Shown: positions 20,340 through 26,652 of the stretch, in pieces
Layout of the letters: each line of letters begins with the position of its first letter
Position numbering within the stretch: the first letter of the stretch is position 1
Virus record (IMG/VR): IMGVR_UViG_2654587685_000006
Direction: 5' to 3' (one strand)
Length of the DNA stretch: 32,733 nucleotides
Source of the DNA: a virus
Taxonomy: Duplodnaviria > Heunggongvirae > Uroviricota > Caudoviricetes
Position numbers and translations under genes: made by a program
Notes under the pieces: model-generated
The model's input: only the letters and a program-made list of their open reading frames with translations
What the model was told of the DNA's origin: nothing
The model's database searches: none

Positions 20340-20520
20340 CACAACAAACACAGGGTCCGACATGAAAGTGCCCGAAAATGACTTTTTTAGGCGTTTTCAT
20401 GTCGGACCTTTTGCGGATTCGATATTAGAAAAAACAAATAGTTATGTTCGAGAAGTACCGACATGATTTTCCCCGAAAAATTTTCATAAATAGCGAAAAC
20501 CCGCGACGCTCCCGCCCCGT
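20340..20520 (-). other. cos site (cosB with repeated small-terminase binding motifs, plus cosN)
   Basis: Minus-strand GGGCGGGAGCGT-CGCGGGTTTTCGCTATTTATGAAAATTTT (fwd about 20476-20517) closely matches the lambda left end as recalled (GGGCGGCGACCT-CGCGGGTTTTCGCTATTTATGAAAATTTT). Three copies of a GTCCGACATGA-like motif lie between it and nu1 (about 20355-20367, 20387-20398 inverted, 20457-20467). Confidence 0.75.
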
Positions 20521-20913
20521 GGCAGGGCACCCCACCGGAAGGACCCGCACAAATGAGAGCGTTTGTCATTAACATTTACAGATAAGATGACGTACATCAT
20601 TGAAACGCCATTCAGCCATATACCGGCAGCATTCGTAGTTGCACTCCGTAACTCTGCGACTTAGGTTAAAAACATGGCCCTCTTTTGCCACCGGCAAATC
20701 TTCAATGGATTTCCCCTGCCGGTTTTTTATTTTCGTCGATGCATAACATTGCATTTACATCAATAGCGGCTATTGTCATTAGTATGTTGCATCAATGCAT
20801 GGGTGGTATTGGCGGTCTTCGCCGGCCGGTTCTGTGTAGCTGCTCCCTGTGACCGGTTTTTTATTTCTCACATTACAGCACCCCCTTAGAGTGAAGGGCT
20901 GCTGTAATGCCTG

Positions 20914-22023: not shown

Positions 22024-22206
22024 TCAGCTCTGCAGACACTGTCGAACACCGTCGACAATTTCGCAGACCTGAGAAGCCGTATCGAAAAGCTGGCGCGCCT
22101 TATCCAGGCTGACGCACCCCCCCAATAAAAAAGGCACCAGTATCGCTACCAGTGCCCATTTCGCCGCCGTTCGCGGCATTCTGTGTGTCCAGTGTTTTCG
22201 CGTCAT
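22024..22206 (-). CDS. Small predicted lipoprotein (about 60 aa)
   Basis: MTRKHWTHRMPRTAAKWALVAILVPFLLGGC: positively charged n-region, hydrophobic core, L-G-G-C lipobox; short Cys-containing mature part. Not similar to lambda Bor or Rz1 as recalled. Confidence 0.5.
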   Translation of the reverse strand: MTRKHWTHRMPRTAAKWALVAILVPFLLGGCVSLDKARQLFDTASQVCEIVDGVRQCLQS

Positions 22207-22214
22207 ATCACCAC

Positions 22215-22331
22215 TCACGATTTCAGAGCAACAATCAATTTTGCCAGCCCATACAGTATCGGAGACACGGCGATGCCAACCGCCACCCACTTAATGGCAA
22301 AAGCCACCGCCCGAATAAAATCAGCACTCAT
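22215..22331 (-). CDS. Possible small single-TM peptide (38 aa)
   Basis: MSADFIRAVAFAIKWVAVGIAVSPILYGLAKLIVALKS; weak SD; immediately upstream of the lipoprotein gene. Confidence 0.25.
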   Translation of the reverse strand: MSADFIRAVAFAIKWVAVGIAVSPILYGLAKLIVALKS

Positions 22332-22560
22332 CTGTTTAAATAAATTGTTGTGTATGCAACCAGTGCGGTACAAATAATCCATGCAACTGGCGTTAGTATG
22401 CGTCTGATGCCCCGGCATACCGCGATGATTTTTGCGGCATCATCAGCCCCTCTGCGGGGTGGTTTCTGCTTTTATCATCAGATCATCTCCAAATTTATCT
22501 TTCGTCGTGTTAGGCTTTACTGGCATGAATGATCCCCATGCGCATTCACAAAATGAATCC

Positions 22561-22597
22561 ATAAACACAAAGCCCCGATTGCTCCAACAACCGGGGC
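22561..22597 (-). terminator. Rho-independent terminator just after the endolysin gene
   Basis: Minus-strand GCCCCGG-(loop)-CGGGGC followed by TTTGTGTTTAT, starting a few nt after the endolysin TAA stop. Confidence 0.5.
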
Positions 22598-22607
22598 TTT
22601 GCCTTAT

Positions 22608-22991
22608 TTATCGTTTCAGCTGAAAGTGAGCCCCGTCCTTTAACGACCGCCACTCACCGCCCCATTCGATGGCGGTTCCCAGCTCTGCGGCAGCCTGCTT
22701 AAATGCCTGCGCGATTTTCTCGTACAGAGGCCAGTCCCATGACACCTGGCTACCAACCCAGGCAACAACATCCACCGCATCACCGGTCAGGTGGCGGCTG
22801 TTCATGGTCTGGCTTTTCCCTTCCGCGACCAGCTGTTTCTGGCGCTCTTTCGTGCGCAGCCCTTCCGTAATACCGAAATCAACCTCCGTCAGCTCCAGCG
22901 CACGGCGAACGACAGCAACCAGCTGTAGTTTAACGCCCTCCAGATTTTTTTCACTGCGACGACTGAATCTGAATTTACCCGACATGCTCAC
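22608..22991 (-). CDS. Endolysin, peptidase M15-like (L-alanyl-D-glutamate peptidase type)
   Basis: 127 aa, no signal peptide; SRHLTGDAVDV gives an H-x6-D zinc-ligand spacing and there is a C-terminal GAHFQ His, consistent with the M15/VanY-like fold; follows two small membrane-protein genes with a 4-nt overlap. Confidence 0.7.
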   Translation of the reverse strand: MSMSGKFRFSRRSEKNLEGVKLQLVAVVRRALELTEVDFGITEGLRTKERQKQLVAEGKSQTMNSRHLTGDAVDVVAWVGSQVSWDWPLYEKIAQAFKQAAAELGTAIEWGGEWRSLKDGAHFQLKR

Positions 22992-23263
22992 CTCCTGAAT
23001 GAAAGGATTTTTGAAACGTTCCCGCGTGCACGTATCACCAGCACGCAGAACAGCAGATTAAGCCCCACCGCCAGCCAGTTCGCCGCTAACGGGCGACCAC
23101 ACAGATAGCTGAGGGGCGCAAAGGCATACAGCAGCATCAGCAGCCAGGCCAGCCATGACATCAGCGGCTTATGTCTGGAATCGCGACGACGATAAAAAAA
23201 GAGCGTCAGCACGATAACCGTGCATAACGCCACATTCAGCAATCCGGGAAGGTTACTTAACAT
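22988..23263 (-). CDS. Small 3-TM membrane protein (holin/antiholin-like)
   Basis: About 91 aa from MLSNLPGLLNVALCTVIVLTLFFY...; three hydrophobic segments; GGAGGTG SD 6 nt upstream. Confidence 0.5.
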   Translation of the reverse strand: MLSNLPGLLNVALCTVIVLTLFFYRRRDSRHKPLMSWLAWLLMLLYAFAPLSYLCGRPLAANWLAVGLNLLFCVLVIRARGNVSKILSFRR

Positions 23264-23645
23264 TGCCGCCACCTCCGCCCCGCAGGCGGGAGAACACACC
23301 GGACGCCAGCGATGCAATATCCTGCTGGTGGATGAACGACAGAATCTTCACCGACACCACCGATACCAGCACCGCACACAGCGCATCTGCCGATGTACCG
23401 TCATACCCTGTTTTTGATGCAATCCAGGCTGACAGCACGCGCGCCCCCAGCACGCCGACGATAAACGACACCAAAAAATGCGCCACCACACGCCAGACTG
23501 AAAGCGCCTGCGGCATCGTTGCCACAAATAACGCCCCGGCGAACGCACCAAACACAATCCCGAAATCCGTTCCGGTAAACAGCCCGAATACCGTCGCCCC
23601 ACCGAGCGCCGCAGCCGTGCCGGAACCAGATAAGGGTTCAGACAT
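23253..23645 (-). CDS. Putative holin (multi-TM, Gly/Ala-rich)
   Basis: MSEPLSGSGTAAALGGATVFGLFTGTDFGIVFGAFAGALFVA...; three to four TM segments; first gene of the lysis cassette; AGGAGA SD. Confidence 0.55.
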   Translation of the reverse strand: MSEPLSGSGTAAALGGATVFGLFTGTDFGIVFGAFAGALFVATMPQALSVWRVVAHFLVSFIVGVLGARVLSAWIASKTGYDGTSADALCAVLVSVVSVKILSFIHQQDIASLASGVFSRLRGGGGGNVK

Positions 23646-23660: not shown

Positions 23661-23686
23661 AAATAAAAAAGGGCCACCAGCGGCCC
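23661..23686 (-). terminator. Hairpin plus T-run immediately upstream of holin RBS
   Basis: Minus-strand GGGCC-gctggt-GGCCC followed by TTTTTTATTT. Confidence 0.4.
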
Positions 23687-23807
23687 GTAAAAACACCCCG
23701 TCAAAGGCGCCCGCAGATGCCTTTTGCGCGGCGTTATTTGATGTGATATGCGCCGGGTGTGGCGAGGATATGAAAAAGGCCCGCCGTAGCGAGCCATGAA
23801 AAAAATG

Positions 23808-23834
23808 AATAAAAAAAACCGCCTGGTGCGGCGG
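23808..23834 (-). terminator. Rho-independent terminator downstream of tRNA cluster
   Basis: Minus-strand CCGCC-gcacca-GGCGG followed by T8. Confidence 0.5.
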
Positions 23835-24109
23835 TTAAGGATGTATTTCCAAGTTTTGCTTAGTACGCGATTAATCTCAACGTTATTCTGAGCGATGCTT
23901 ACAACATCAGAATGATGCATTACCGACCCTGCCAGGAAATACAAAATCTCCACCGATAATGCACCATTCTGCTGTCGTAAAAAAATCAGCACTGAGGCTA
24001 ACCTGGCCTCAAATCATAGCCAGAGAACAGAATGTCTCTTAAAACAACCTGCTCCCACGTAATAAAAAATACGCCAGTGCTGCAATACAATAAGGCTTAT
24101 TTCAAATGC

Positions 24110-24184
<75 letters not shown>

Positions 24185-24187
24185 ATA

Positions 24188-24263
<76 letters not shown>

Positions 24264-24265
24264 AC

Positions 24266-24342
24266 TGGCCCGCCACCGAGGACTCGAACCTCGCACCATC
24301 AACTTAGAAGGTTGATGCTCTATCCGGATGAGCTAGTAGCGG
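24266..24342 (-). tRNA. tRNA-Arg (anticodon UCU)
   Basis: CCGCTACTAGCTCATCCGGATAGAGCATCAACCTTCTAAGTTGATGGTGCGAGGTTCGAGTCCTCGGTGGCGGGCCA; anticodon loop CUUCUAA; reads AGA/AGG. Confidence 0.85.
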
Positions 24343-24343
24343 C

Positions 24344-24419
24344 TGGTGGCCCTTGCTGGATTTGAACCAGCGACCTGGCGATTATGAGTCGCTCGCTCTC
24401 ACCACTGAGCTAAAGGGCC
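24344..24419 (-). tRNA. tRNA-Ile2-like (anticodon CAU, probably lysidine-modified to read AUA; Met not excluded)
   Basis: GGCCCTTTAGCTCAGTGGTGAGAGCGAGCGACTCATAATCGCCAGGTCGCTGGTTCAAATCCAGCAAGGGCCACCA; body resembles E. coli ileX/ileY-type tRNA as recalled. Confidence 0.8.
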
Positions 24420-24468: not shown

Positions 24469-25518
24469 TCAAACGATTAAATCCTGAACTTCCCTGACTG
24501 TCTGTTCAAAACATCCTGTCTCCAGCTCAACACCAATCGCACAACGCCCCAGTGCCATCGCCGCTTTTACCGTTGAGCCTGAACCCATAAAAAAATCTGC
24601 AACCAGGTCTCCCGGACGACTGCTCGCGTTGATTATCTGCTGCAGCATTTCTGCCGGTTTTTCGCACGGATGTTTCCCTGGATAGTACTGCACCGGTTTA
24701 TGCGTCCAGACATCGGTGTACGGAACCTGCGCCGTCACACCGAAATACCGCCGCAAATTTTTATATTCACTCAGCAATTCCGTATACTGCCGGTTCAGCT
24801 CACTGTATGTGCTGACCAGCTGGTGGTGTGGTTTTTCCAGTTCCCCGCGCTGATGTTTTTCTGCCGCAACACGCGCAAACAACGCCTGCAATTTGTTGTA
24901 ATCACCCTCGTTCGGTAACTGCCACTGACTGGTACCAAACCAGTGCGAAGCCATGTTTTTCTTTCCGGTGGCTTCCGCTATCTGTTTTGACGTTATTCCC
25001 AGTGATTTACGCGCATCACGAAAGTAAGAAATCAGCGGGGCCATGACGTGCTGTTTTAGCTCGCGCCCCTGCTCCACATAGCCATCATCTTTCGGGCGAT
25101 ACGGTCCCTGATAATGTTCTGCAAACAGAATGCGCTCTGTTGCCGGAAAATACGCCCGCAGACTTTCCTTATTGCACCCGTTCCAGCGTCCGGACGGCTT
25201 CGCCCAGATAATGTGGTTCAGCACATTAAAGCGCTCACGCATCATGATTTCGGTGTCAGATGCCAGGCGATGACCACAGAACAGGTAAAGACTTCCGGCA
25301 GGCTTCAGTACCCGCCAGAACTGCGCCAGACACTGGTCCAGCCATTTCAGGTAATCATCGTCGCCCTCCCACTGGTTATCCCAGCCCTCGGGCTTCACTT
25401 TAAAGTATGGCGGGTCTGTGACTATCAGATCGACAGAATTTTCCGGTAATGTCTGGATAAATTCCAGGCAATCAGCGTTGATTAACTCACAACTGGATAT
25501 TTTTACAGTATTGGCCAT
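24469..25518 (-). CDS. Orphan DNA amino-methyltransferase (N6-adenine/N4-cytosine class)
   Basis: 349 aa; catalytic motif IV DPPY (LIVTDPPYF) near the N-terminus and AdoMet motif I FxGxG (DFFMGSGST) near the C-terminus; no adjacent restriction endonuclease gene. Confidence 0.85.
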   Translation of the reverse strand: MANTVKISSCELINADCLEFIQTLPENSVDLIVTDPPYFKVKPEGWDNQWEGDDDYLKWLDQCLAQFWRVLKPAGSLYLFCGHRLASDTEIMMRERFNVLNHIIWAKPSGRWNGCNKESLRAYFPATERILFAEHYQGPYRPKDDGYVEQGRELKQHVMAPLISYFRDARKSLGITSKQIAEATGKKNMASHWFGTSQWQLPNEGDYNKLQALFARVAAEKHQRGELEKPHHQLVSTYSELNRQYTELLSEYKNLRRYFGVTAQVPYTDVWTHKPVQYYPGKHPCEKPAEMLQQIINASSRPGDLVADFFMGSGSTVKAAMALGRCAIGVELETGCFEQTVREVQDLIV

Positions 25519-26097: not shown

Positions 26098-26652
26098 TCA
26101 AGACATTTTTTGAGCAAACGATTCTCGCATAGGGATGTATAGCGCATATTCAGCAACAGCCAACCAATTAGCAATTCGCTTTTCGCATGTACTAAAACAC
26201 CATTCCGGGTGCACCTCATTCAACAATTCAGCCATTTTGCGTTTACTCATCCCCCGCCCTTCGTACCTTTGCCGCAGGATATCAATCAATCCAGGATAAC
26301 GTGCAAGCGCTTTACTTATCACCCCATCAATGCGTAACGCCTCTGCATCAGAACAGTGAGACAACCAGCTCTTCTGTCTGCCAGCGATCATCTCTCGCAA
26401 GAATGCTTCCAGCTCTGGTTTATCAATCCCTGACTCCCTGATTCTACGCAGGGCTTCATTGATCGCGGTTTTTGTCAGTTTTTTGGATGTCAGCAACTGA
26501 TTGAACATATTTCCTGTTTTGCCACCACCTATATACGACCAACGCCCCCACATCCGTAATTTCCCCTGGATCCAGACGGCTTCCAGCGTTTTTAGACGTA
26601 AATGCTCGCCGCTTTTGCCTGTAATTTCCGGGTATATCATATTTACGATCAC
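26098..26652 (-). CDS. Late-gene antitermination protein Q-like
   Basis: 184-aa ORF in the Q position (after rusA, before late terminator and lysis genes); unrelated in sequence to lambda Q but resembles other lambdoid prophage antiterminators as recalled. Assignment by position plus recollection only. Confidence 0.55.
   Translation of the reverse strand: MIVNMIYPEITGKSGEHLRLKTLEAVWIQGKLRMWGRWSYIGGGKTGNMFNQLLTSKKLTKTAINEALRRIRESGIDKPELEAFLREMIAGRQKSWLSHCSDAEALRIDGVISKALARYPGLIDILRQRYEGRGMSKRKMAELLNEVHPEWCFSTCEKRIANWLAVAEYALYIPMRESFAQKMS

Follow-up and report, generated by a model that had tools for sequence, protein, structure and literature searches.

The window analysed here, a 32,733-nt stretch of DNA, is best explained as coming from a lambdoid E. 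coli prophage and carrying its late operon, in which the lysis module is of the phiP27 type. The genes and elements of the module lie on the minus strand and are, in their order of transcription:

23671–23836, minus strand: three terminator-like hairpins upstream of holin 1
23253–23645, minus strand: holin-family protein 1, 130 aa with three hydrophobic segments (PF16931, Phage_holin_8)
22988–23263, minus strand: holin-family protein 2, 91 aa with three TM segments and a basic C-terminus (PF05449, Phage_holin_3_7)
22608–22991, minus strand: M15C L-alanyl-D-glutamate endopeptidase endolysin, 127 aa from a GTG start, soluble
22567–22602, minus strand: terminator-like hairpin with a 16-bp stem, beginning 6 nt past the endolysin stop
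22443–22526, minus strand: remnant (27 codons) of a 65-aa gene with a C-terminal TMD, cut off by a 1-nt insertion specific to the window
22215–22331, minus strand: 38-aa single-TM ORF, corresponding to the C-terminal half of small tail-anchored proteins of the phrog_1115 family
22024–22206, minus strand: 60-aa prolipoprotein with a lipobox, occupying the spanin slot as candidate factor for outer-membrane lysis

The initial annotation described a holin-like protein of about 130 aa with multiple TM segments followed by a 91-aa protein with three, and both now have family matches. Holin 1 matched Phage_holin_8 at 80.5 bits (E 1.4e-22; cut-off 26.4, the gathering score) and phrog_198 (E 4.5e-42), while holin 2 matched Phage_holin_3_7 at 76.4 bits (E 1.8e-21; cut-off 25.4, the gathering score) and phrog_217 (E 3.3e-37). 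Both proteins thus exceed the gathering cut-offs and, by hydropathy, have three hydrophobic segments each, which places them in these families as putative holins. The end of holin 1 and the start of holin 2 overlap by 11 nt, and from its sequence holin 2 could be a holin or an antiholin.

The third product had been read as an M15-type endolysin from its H-x6-D spacing, and this assignment held. The protein matched PF13539 (Peptidase_M15_4; E 4e-11) and phrog_465 (E 2e-71), the H-x6-D spacing is found in SRHLTGDAVD, and the distal His in DGAHFQL completes the zinc triad. The M15C L-Ala-D-Glu peptidases 8q2g, 5opz (ChiX) and 2mxz (T5 EndoT5) were matched in the PDB over the full length (E 1e-41 to 1e-21); the protein is a compact single M15C domain that aligns with ChiX and EndoT5 from end to end, leaving no extra tail. 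We found no signal or SAR domain in the endolysin, which has a net charge of +4, and an alternative ATG start at 22985, behind GGAGG, would give a 125-aa product.

A hairpin had also been reported directly after the endolysin stop. It is present, folding at -31.8 kcal/mol (z = -6.2; 0 of 200 shuffles fold as well), and its U-tract is imperfect (UGUGUUUAU). The three hairpins upstream of holin 1 fit control of the late operon by Q-dependent read-through, and a Q-like gene matching PF06576 and PF06530 lies at 26098–26652. The hairpin at 22567–22602 is no barrier, since transcription of the late operon relies on antitermination by Q. Nor can it isolate the lipoprotein gene from the rest of the cassette: the packaging and tail genes further downstream on the same strand (Nu1, gpA, portal, capsid, tail) need the same Q-antiterminated transcript. 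No sigma-70-like promoter was found between the endolysin and the lipoprotein on their strand.

Searches of the whole window agreed with the initial annotation that no Rz/Rz1 pair is present. When all ORFs of 20 aa or more, from any start codon and on both strands, were scanned for a lipobox, only one credible lipoprotein emerged, at 22024–22206, and tblastn with nine canonical i- and o-spanins gave nothing better than E 0.2. No ORF combining an N-terminal TMD, a periplasmic domain and an embedded lipoprotein gene was found in the 32.7-kb window, and the window encodes no type-II inner-membrane protein with an N-terminal TMD and an extended, typically coiled-coil periplasmic domain, which a two-component system would carry as its i-spanin beside or around the o-spanin gene. 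Three members of the lipoprotein family had no match to Rz (PF03245) or Rz1 (PF06085) at E up to 10, with the positive controls, the spanins of L094, scoring 3e-35 for Rz and 2e-20 for Rz1. The mature peptide has 30 residues and no partner domain, short of the length required to span the periplasm. Since the window has no Rz/Rz1, the outer-membrane step is unconventional, and this part of the initial annotation stood.

The 183-bp lipoprotein gene encodes a signal peptide ending at the lipobox (MTRKHWTHRMPRTAAKWALVAILVPFLLGG/C) and a mature 30-aa peptide, CVSLDKARQLFDTASQVCEIVDGVRQCLQS. The lipobox reads LLGG/C in the window protein and LLVG/C in most relatives, and position +2 across the family is V, A, T, G, S or E, never D. 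A small protein with a lipobox and without the Lol-avoidance Asp at +2, it would by its sequence be of o-spanin type. It matched phrog_7528 (E 1e-36), and no family in Pfam or NCBIfam covers it. The cysteines of the mature part follow the pattern C-x16-C-x8/9-C (C-x16-C-x8-C in the window protein), with C31 and C48 invariant in the family and C57 at least 90% conserved. The mature peptide is helix-prone with a heptad-like hydrophobic face; it is moderately amphipathic only (muH 0.31, p 0.07) and not cationic (net charge -1), and AlphaFold2 modelled the lipoprotein as one helix at low confidence (pLDDT 67).

This is a real gene under purifying selection. It is intact in 147 of 156 copies (72 DNA alleles), has a pN/pS of 0.25, or 0.20 in the mature part, and the family occurs in E. 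coli, in 314 of 5,426 complete genomes. An exhaustive profile search of 1.84 billion representatives returned only 24 matches, all of them short and without a C-terminal TMD; the credible ones are small lipoproteins that share the Cys pattern, and none connects the family to a larger one. We also considered whether the protein is a shortened Rz, given a by-eye likeness to the TMD (LL.GC.SL) and C-terminus (QV...IR.QCL), and rejected this when the scores proved shuffle-like: Smith-Waterman comparisons of the window lipoprotein with three Rz proteins gave p 0.11–0.93 against shuffles, and with the Stx2k orthologue one of three comparisons reached p 0.01.

About 400 nt separate the endolysin stop from the lipoprotein start in the window. 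This spacer is a lineage-specific insert made up of the hairpin, the frameshifted 65-aa gene and the truncated phrog_1115 gene. A similar hairpin stands at the opening of the insert in other variants, for example L023. In the alignment with TUM1881, the frameshift site of the 65-aa gene reads CAGAGGGG versus CAG-GGGG, and the gene is intact in 4 of 98 loci. The 38-aa ORF covers positions 32–67 of the 67-position phrog_1115 profile (E 1.3e-18), ends 8 nt before the lipoprotein start, and has full-length 67-aa counterparts in Cronobacter and RM11911. In the window, then, a hairpin and degenerate small ORFs stand between the endolysin and the lipoprotein, in a region that often holds morons in lambdoid phages.

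The arrangement in relatives is more compact. At 61 related loci, 15 nt separate the stop of the M15 endolysin from the lipoprotein ATG, and in seven divergent cassettes the start falls between -4 and +15 nt of the endolysin stop. It overlaps the stop of a GH108 endolysin by 4 nt in Yersinia (L007) and in a Mu-like phage (L184), and lies 0–10 nt past the endolysin stop in L177, L178, L180 and L182. Such cassettes are found in lambdoid, P27-like and Mu-like phages, where the lipoprotein is accompanied by M15 or GH108 endolysins and by either holin_8 plus holin_3_7 or a single lambda-S-type holin_3_1.

The same slot can hold canonical spanins. In L094, Rz/Rz1 start 15 nt past the same endolysin; a small TM gene (ending ...RWW and a stop codon) is followed after 1 nt by Rz in GER2 and L061 and, also after 1 nt, by the lipoprotein in L023 and Stx2k; and distant holin_8 cassettes of Enterobacter and Leclercia carry canonical spanins in that position. 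Among the holin-anchored loci with enough downstream DNA (n=63), 55 had the lipoprotein without Rz/Rz1, four had the reverse and four had neither, counts that are not independent, as close relatives among E. coli prophages make up most of the loci; the argument is carried by some seven cassette contexts that are clearly distinct and by the mosaic junctions. The four loci with neither have a truncated endolysin (one), an IS element (one) or toxin genes directly after the endolysin (two). Rz/Rz1 were found in 0 of 66 lipoprotein-anchored loci, and an intact Rz/Rz1 pair was never seen together with the lipoprotein among the loci examined. In GER2, which has Rz/Rz1, the lipoprotein is a pseudogene with three in-frame stops. 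A genome-contig scan with holin 1 returned only five loci. Together this establishes the lipoprotein as the fourth cassette gene in relatives, alternating with Rz/Rz1 in one equivalent slot, and the earlier description of it as a separate gene beyond the terminator was not borne out.

Because in relatives it occupies the usual spanin gene site, the lipoprotein is probably the outer-membrane breaker. On balance we favor the reading that the 60-aa lipoprotein performs the outer-membrane lysis step with neither Rz/Rz1 nor a dedicated phage inner-membrane partner.

An inner-membrane partner could have escaped recognition, in which case the lipoprotein would be half of a true two-component spanin, its other subunit being a small TM neighbor, the phiP27 ORF described below, a holin-family protein or a host protein. 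The conserved lipoprotein cysteines are reminiscent of lambda, where Rz and Rz1 form intermolecular disulfides, and at 41 of 98 loci a small single-TM gene immediately precedes the lipoprotein. There is also a published pair: Kongari et al. 2018 list the phiP27 orthologue in SpaninDB as a 51-aa "o-spanin" that forms a 'separated' two-component spanin with a 64-aa i-spanin, an assignment based on membrane signals only and giving a periplasmic total of 62 aa, the shortest in their set. The 'o-spanin' of this Stx2e phage (record 20706–20861) is 94% identical to the window lipoprotein over the 51-aa form, and phiP27 shares with the window the lipobox, the 30-aa mature peptide and the holin_8 / holin_3_7 / M15 cassette. 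The entry differs in that it does not use the conserved 60-aa start, and in that it pairs the o-spanin with a 64-aa ORF of which the window has no counterpart.

The candidate partners fared poorly. The phiP27 'i-spanin' is a TTG-initiated ORF antisense to a 90-aa ORF that matches phrog_36812 (E 5e-20); it occurs at only two loci, has no PHROG match itself and is absent from the window, and our result corrects its database entry. The initial annotation had raised the prospect that the 60-aa lipoprotein and the 38-aa peptide are a known spanin; the lipoprotein does have its phiP27 precedent, while the 38-aa peptide is not the partner: it is truncated, lacks a periplasmic domain and comes from a family whose members also stand before true Rz genes. 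We rejected it as an i-spanin, along with the 65-aa ORF and the phrog_4493 proteins, since all of these are patchy in occurrence, lack a periplasmic domain and precede Rz as well. The phrog_1115 and phrog_4493 proteins lack a periplasmic domain because they end at the TMD, and most loci and all compact cassettes lack them. Neither holin can be the obligate partner, because the lipoprotein occurs with two unrelated holin types, including the S-type, and the same holins also occur with Rz/Rz1. Across 98 distinct related loci, no type-II ORF with an N-terminal TMD was common to more than 8, and no relevant report of an orphan or solo o-spanin turned up in the literature searched. We therefore consider a two-component spanin with a hidden inner-membrane subunit unlikely.

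The lipoprotein might instead be a moron with no part in lysis, acting in exclusion like Cor or Llp or in serum resistance like Bor, with the outer membrane ruptured by osmotic or shear forces and no gene devoted to that step. Some known exclusion factors are small, disulfide-containing phage lipoproteins, and since lysis in shaken culture still occurs when a phage is spanin-defective, a cassette that lacks an outer-membrane factor is viable. The position of the gene in the window, past a terminator-like hairpin and among small ORFs at the boundary of lysis and packaging genes, is a classic moron zone, and toxin genes surround the cassette in relatives. Phages without a spanin also make up about 13% (91/677) of those surveyed by Kongari et al. 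2018. A moron, however, would be expected to assort independently of spanins, yet the lipoprotein keeps apart from intact Rz/Rz1 and has decayed beside them in GER2. It is tightly coupled to the endolysin stop in most relatives, has no promoter-like site upstream on its own strand and, unlike Llp and Cor, is unlinked to receptor-binding genes. These points make a moron role improbable.

It is very improbable that the endolysin or the holins carry out the outer-membrane step, with the lipoprotein as an accessory: some endolysins have amphipathic, outer-membrane-active tails (discussed by Kongari et al. 2018) and the window endolysin is positively charged, but it is a single M15C domain without such a tail, and endolysins 91–94% identical to it are paired, along with the holins, with canonical Rz/Rz1 in L061, L066, L067 and L094, so that these proteins do not make a spanin dispensable and the M15 endolysin alone is evidently insufficient.

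For the favored reading, in which the lipoprotein acts without a phage partner, we propose the following sequence of events. The two holin-family proteins, probably a holin with an antiholin or co-holin, would open the inner membrane, and the soluble M15C endopeptidase would then cleave the L-Ala-D-Glu bond of the peptidoglycan. After export and lipidation at Cys31, the lipoprotein would be delivered to the inner leaflet of the outer membrane, a destination we infer because no family member has Asp at +2. Expressed late, it would accumulate and, after the endolysin has cleared away the peptidoglycan, destabilize the outer membrane. We speculate that it could do so through disulfide-linked self-association or by engaging a host envelope component, and the colicin-release lipoproteins of roughly 28 residues, which permeabilize the outer membrane, may serve as a loose analogy. 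The known spanin mechanism cannot apply, because a helix of 30 residues is about 4.5 nm long and cannot span the periplasm.

A bolder form of this hypothesis, which we put forward tentatively and hold as possible rather than probable, is that a triacylated, two-cysteine lipopeptide of about 30 residues suffices alone for the outer-membrane step. It would then represent a third class of disruptor beside spanins and disruptins, set apart by action from the inner leaflet of the outer membrane, by having no inner-membrane anchor and by natural interchange with Rz/Rz1. Kongari et al. [quoted passage not shown] The present cassette offers a tractable case, with a 183-bp candidate gene, Stx2e phage phiP27 among its carriers, and natural controls in which the same holins and endolysin are combined with Rz/Rz1. 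Were the lipoprotein to act on its own, fusion of membranes across the periplasm would not be the sole lipoprotein-based way to rupture the outer membrane, and a minimal outer-membrane-active lipopeptide would be gained. The question also bears on toxin release, as Stx2e and LT-II prophages have toxin genes flanking the cassette.

Compared with known systems, the lipoprotein resembles lambda Rz/Rz1 (PF03245 / PF06085) in its slot directly after the endolysin, in being a small, predicted outer-membrane lipoprotein and in its conserved periplasmic cysteines. Unlike that pair, it has no i-spanin and no similarity to Rz1, is predicted to be helical and not proline-rich, and falls far short of the length needed to bridge the periplasm. 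Unimolecular spanins of the T1 gp11 type are likewise single genes of a lysis cassette with an N-terminal lipoprotein signal. They differ in having a C-terminal TMD and roughly 100 periplasmic residues, as against 30 in the window lipoprotein, in which no hydrophobic segment follows the lipobox.

Colicin lysis or bacteriocin release lipoproteins (PF02402) have mature lipopeptides of about 28–32 residues that compromise the outer membrane without an inner-membrane partner. Their architecture is comparable to that of the window lipoprotein, although the likeness is a functional analogy only: the window protein had no Pfam match to PF02402 (Lysis_col) at E up to 10, and the release proteins, which are encoded on plasmids and regulated by SOS, have neither the two extra cysteines nor a place in holin-endolysin cassettes. 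The disruptin of phiKT, gp28, is another non-spanin solution to the outer membrane in a coliphage. It is a cationic, unlipidated, cytoplasmic peptide, whereas the window lipoprotein is predicted to be secreted and lipidated, its mature part is not the highly cationic amphipathic peptide of a disruptin, and it starts with a signal sequence. Finally, the Serratia ChiWXYZ (type 10 secretion) system and the window cassette are both holin plus M15 endopeptidase modules, and ChiX is a close homologue of the window endolysin (E 1.5e-39). ChiWXYZ carries Rz-like spanins and serves in secretion, while the window cassette lies in the late operon of a prophage, upstream of packaging and tail genes.

The window corresponds to the late region of a lambdoid prophage in E. 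coli. All its features read on the minus strand, in the following order:

26098-26652 (-): Q-like antiterminator, after DUF968 and RusA
24469-25518 (-): DNA methylase
24110-24419 (-): four tRNA genes (Gly-TCC, Lys-TTT, Arg-TCT and one with a CAT anticodon), placed after the methylase and before the lysis genes
23671-23836 (-): three terminator-like hairpins, between the tRNA and lysis genes
23253-23645 (-): holin-family protein 1, 130 aa, Phage_holin_8 match
22988-23263 (-): holin-family protein 2, 91 aa, three TM segments, Phage_holin_3_7 match
22608-22991 (-): endolysin, 127 aa, M15C L-Ala-D-Glu endopeptidase by H-x6-D motif and structure alignments
22443-22526 (-): 65-aa gene with a C-terminal TMD, truncated by a 1-nt insertion relative to E. 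coli TUM1881 (L003 4528-4725)
22215-22331 (-): 38-aa ORF
22024-22206 (-): 60-aa prolipoprotein
after the lysis genes, before Nu1 (-): small genes of unknown function
after the small genes (-): Nu1, gpA, lambda-type portal, capsid protein E and tail tip protein J

The initial annotation had described a holin-like protein, a second 3-TM protein, an M15-type endolysin followed directly by a hairpin, and no Rz/Rz1, with the lipoprotein gene separate beyond the terminator. As observation this was confirmed; its interpretation is supported only in part. The endolysin aligns end to end with solved structures (8q2g, ChiX and T5 EndoT5), and a 16-bp hairpin (-31.8 kcal/mol, z = -6.2) starts 6 nt past its stop. 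A lipobox scan of all ORFs across the window found one credible lipoprotein, at 22024-22206, and tblastn of nine canonical spanin subunits against the window returned only noise. The hairpin cannot insulate the lipoprotein gene, because the downstream packaging and structural genes need the same Q-antiterminated transcript and we found no promoter-like site on the coding strand between endolysin and lipoprotein.

The lipoprotein is a real, constrained gene. It is intact in 147 of 156 copies (72 DNA alleles). Its pN/pS is 0.25 across the whole gene and falls to 0.20 in the mature part; the value of 0.25 over codons 2-9 supports the 60-aa start. Of the three cysteines in its C-x16-C-x8-C pattern (x9 replaces x8 in a second subfamily), C31 and C48 never vary and C57 hardly does. 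Pfam and NCBIfam contain no entry for it, and the family is tiny (138 clusters at 90% identity; 24 profile hits in 1.84 billion representatives), with all named sources in Enterobacterales and copies in 314 of 5,426 complete E. coli genomes. The signal-peptide codons at 22132-22157 (-) (KWALVAILVPFL) form a terminator-like hairpin of 11 pairs followed by six T on the sense strand (-19 kcal/mol, z about -3). Across the 72 alleles, these codons show roughly half the synonymous divergence of the mature region (pS 0.13 vs 0.23), which hints at nucleotide-level constraint and possibly attenuation.

For comparison, two sets of 80 IMG/VR loci were fetched, one anchored on holin 1 and the other on the lipoprotein, and loci from other genera and divergent family members were added. 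The commonest layout (61 loci) is holin_8, holin_3_7, M15 endolysin, a 15-nt gap and the lipoprotein, with no gene between the last two. In Yersinia and one Mu-like phage, the ATG of the lipoprotein and the stop codon of a GH108 endolysin overlap, and in three divergent members, which have a single lambda-S-type holin_3_1, the lipoprotein starts 0-10 nt past an M15 or GH108 endolysin. Exchange between M15C endopeptidase and GH108 muramidase inside otherwise near-identical holin and lipoprotein cassettes is a clean case of module exchange within a lysis cassette. Downstream sequence was sufficient in 63 of the holin-anchored loci. Of these, 55 carry the lipoprotein without Rz/Rz1 and four carry Rz/Rz1 without the lipoprotein; the four lacking both comprise one with a truncated endolysin, one with an IS element and two in which LT-II-like toxin genes immediately follow the endolysin. 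Rz/Rz1 was absent from all 66 lipoprotein-anchored loci. At locus L094, Rz/Rz1 starts 15 nt past the same endolysin. One small tail-anchored protein, with the C-terminus ...RWW*, lies 1 nt ahead of Rz in GER2 and L061 and 1 nt ahead of the lipoprotein in L023 and phiSTEC1575-Stx2k. More distant holin_8 cassettes of Enterobacter and Leclercia have embedded or overlapped spanins in the lipoprotein's slot. GER2, with canonical Rz/Rz1, retains the lipoprotein only as a pseudogene (L006 2956-3150, 72% identity, three in-frame stops), downstream of its S-R-Rz/Rz1 cassette and of a gene for an ais-like phosphatase in the opposite orientation. Because of these complementary loci, L094, the shared junctions, the distant cassettes and the pseudogene, we conclude that the lipoprotein and spanins are alternative occupants of one position. 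That the gene is instead a moron without a role in lysis seems unlikely to us.

Among isolated phages, the Stx2e phage phiP27 comes nearest in the lysis region (~91% DNA identity); its orthologous ORF is 94% identical to the window lipoprotein. The spanin database SpaninDB lists this ORF as a "separated" o-spanin whose partner is a 64-aa i-spanin, and the pair has the shortest periplasmic total of that survey (Kongari et al. 2018), so a spanin-slot lipoprotein lacking an i-spanin was partly anticipated there. The i-spanin half is doubtful. We translated it as a TTG-initiated ORF (L001 5399-5593, phiP27 record 20348-20542, minus strand); it has no PHROG match, lies antisense to a 90-aa ORF matching phrog_36812 (L001 5337-5609, plus strand; E 5e-20) and occurs in just two collected loci, its region not being conserved in the window. 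The two-component assignment is therefore left with membrane signals as its sole basis, and the i-spanin is probably a mis-call. The GenBank annotation over the phiP27 lipoprotein gene, L32 (P27p32), is in the wrong frame.

The tRNA position holds ileZ, argO and stx2e in phiP27 and no toxin genes in the window. Toxin genes repeatedly adjoin cassettes of this type (L071 5797-6937, L011 2489-3217, L001 7204-8439): LT-II-like A and B subunits after the endolysin in L071, a pertussis-S1/scabin-like ADP-ribosyltransferase upstream of the holin in a Cronobacter prophage, and stx2e upstream of the holin in phiP27. PP818812.1 ('Actinobacillus phage vB_Apl-pPE4') is ~90% identical in DNA to the window's lysis region and has an unannotated lipoprotein copy; its recorded host, Actinobacillus pleuropneumoniae, looks worth checking.

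An unrecognized inner-membrane partner would restore a two-component system; however, no type-II membrane ORF was common to more than 8 of 98 distinct loci, and we consider such a partner improbable. The sole recurrent neighbor, the phrog_4493/1115 tail-anchored protein (41/98 loci), lacks a periplasmic domain and is found ahead of true Rz genes as well. The 38-aa ORF is its C-terminal half. Members of this tail-anchored family (phrog_4493, phrog_1115 and phrog_3246; 45-67 aa, basic N-terminus, C-terminal TMD ending ...RWW; L006 1606-1758, L061 5966-6103, L023 5611-5784, L005 2299-2472 and window 22215-22331) sit between the endolysin and the gene for the outer-membrane step, 1 nt upstream of Rz or the lipoprotein, and may be lysis regulators. 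The truncated 65-aa gene lies upstream of the 38-aa ORF and is intact in TUM1881 and three other loci; its insertion (CAGAGGGG vs CAG-GGGG) may reflect either a genuine frameshift or an error in sequencing.

The mature peptide is predicted as one helix (AlphaFold2, pLDDT 67), and Jpred gave 83% helix for the phiP27 lipoprotein (Kongari et al. 2018). It has a heptad-like hydrophobic stripe, moderate amphipathicity and a net charge of -1, and so is not a cationic disruptin. Neither spanin mechanism fits, because the peptide lacks a C-terminal TMD and its length does not suffice to bridge the periplasm. Action of the endolysin or holins themselves on the outer membrane is very improbable. With modest confidence, we favor a stand-alone outer-membrane lipopeptide, which would act on the outer membrane once the endolysin has removed the peptidoglycan. 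At 183 bp, the gene allows the "spanin-less" question to be tested directly in E. coli. The nearest functional analogy is to the colicin-release lipoproteins, with no homology claimed.
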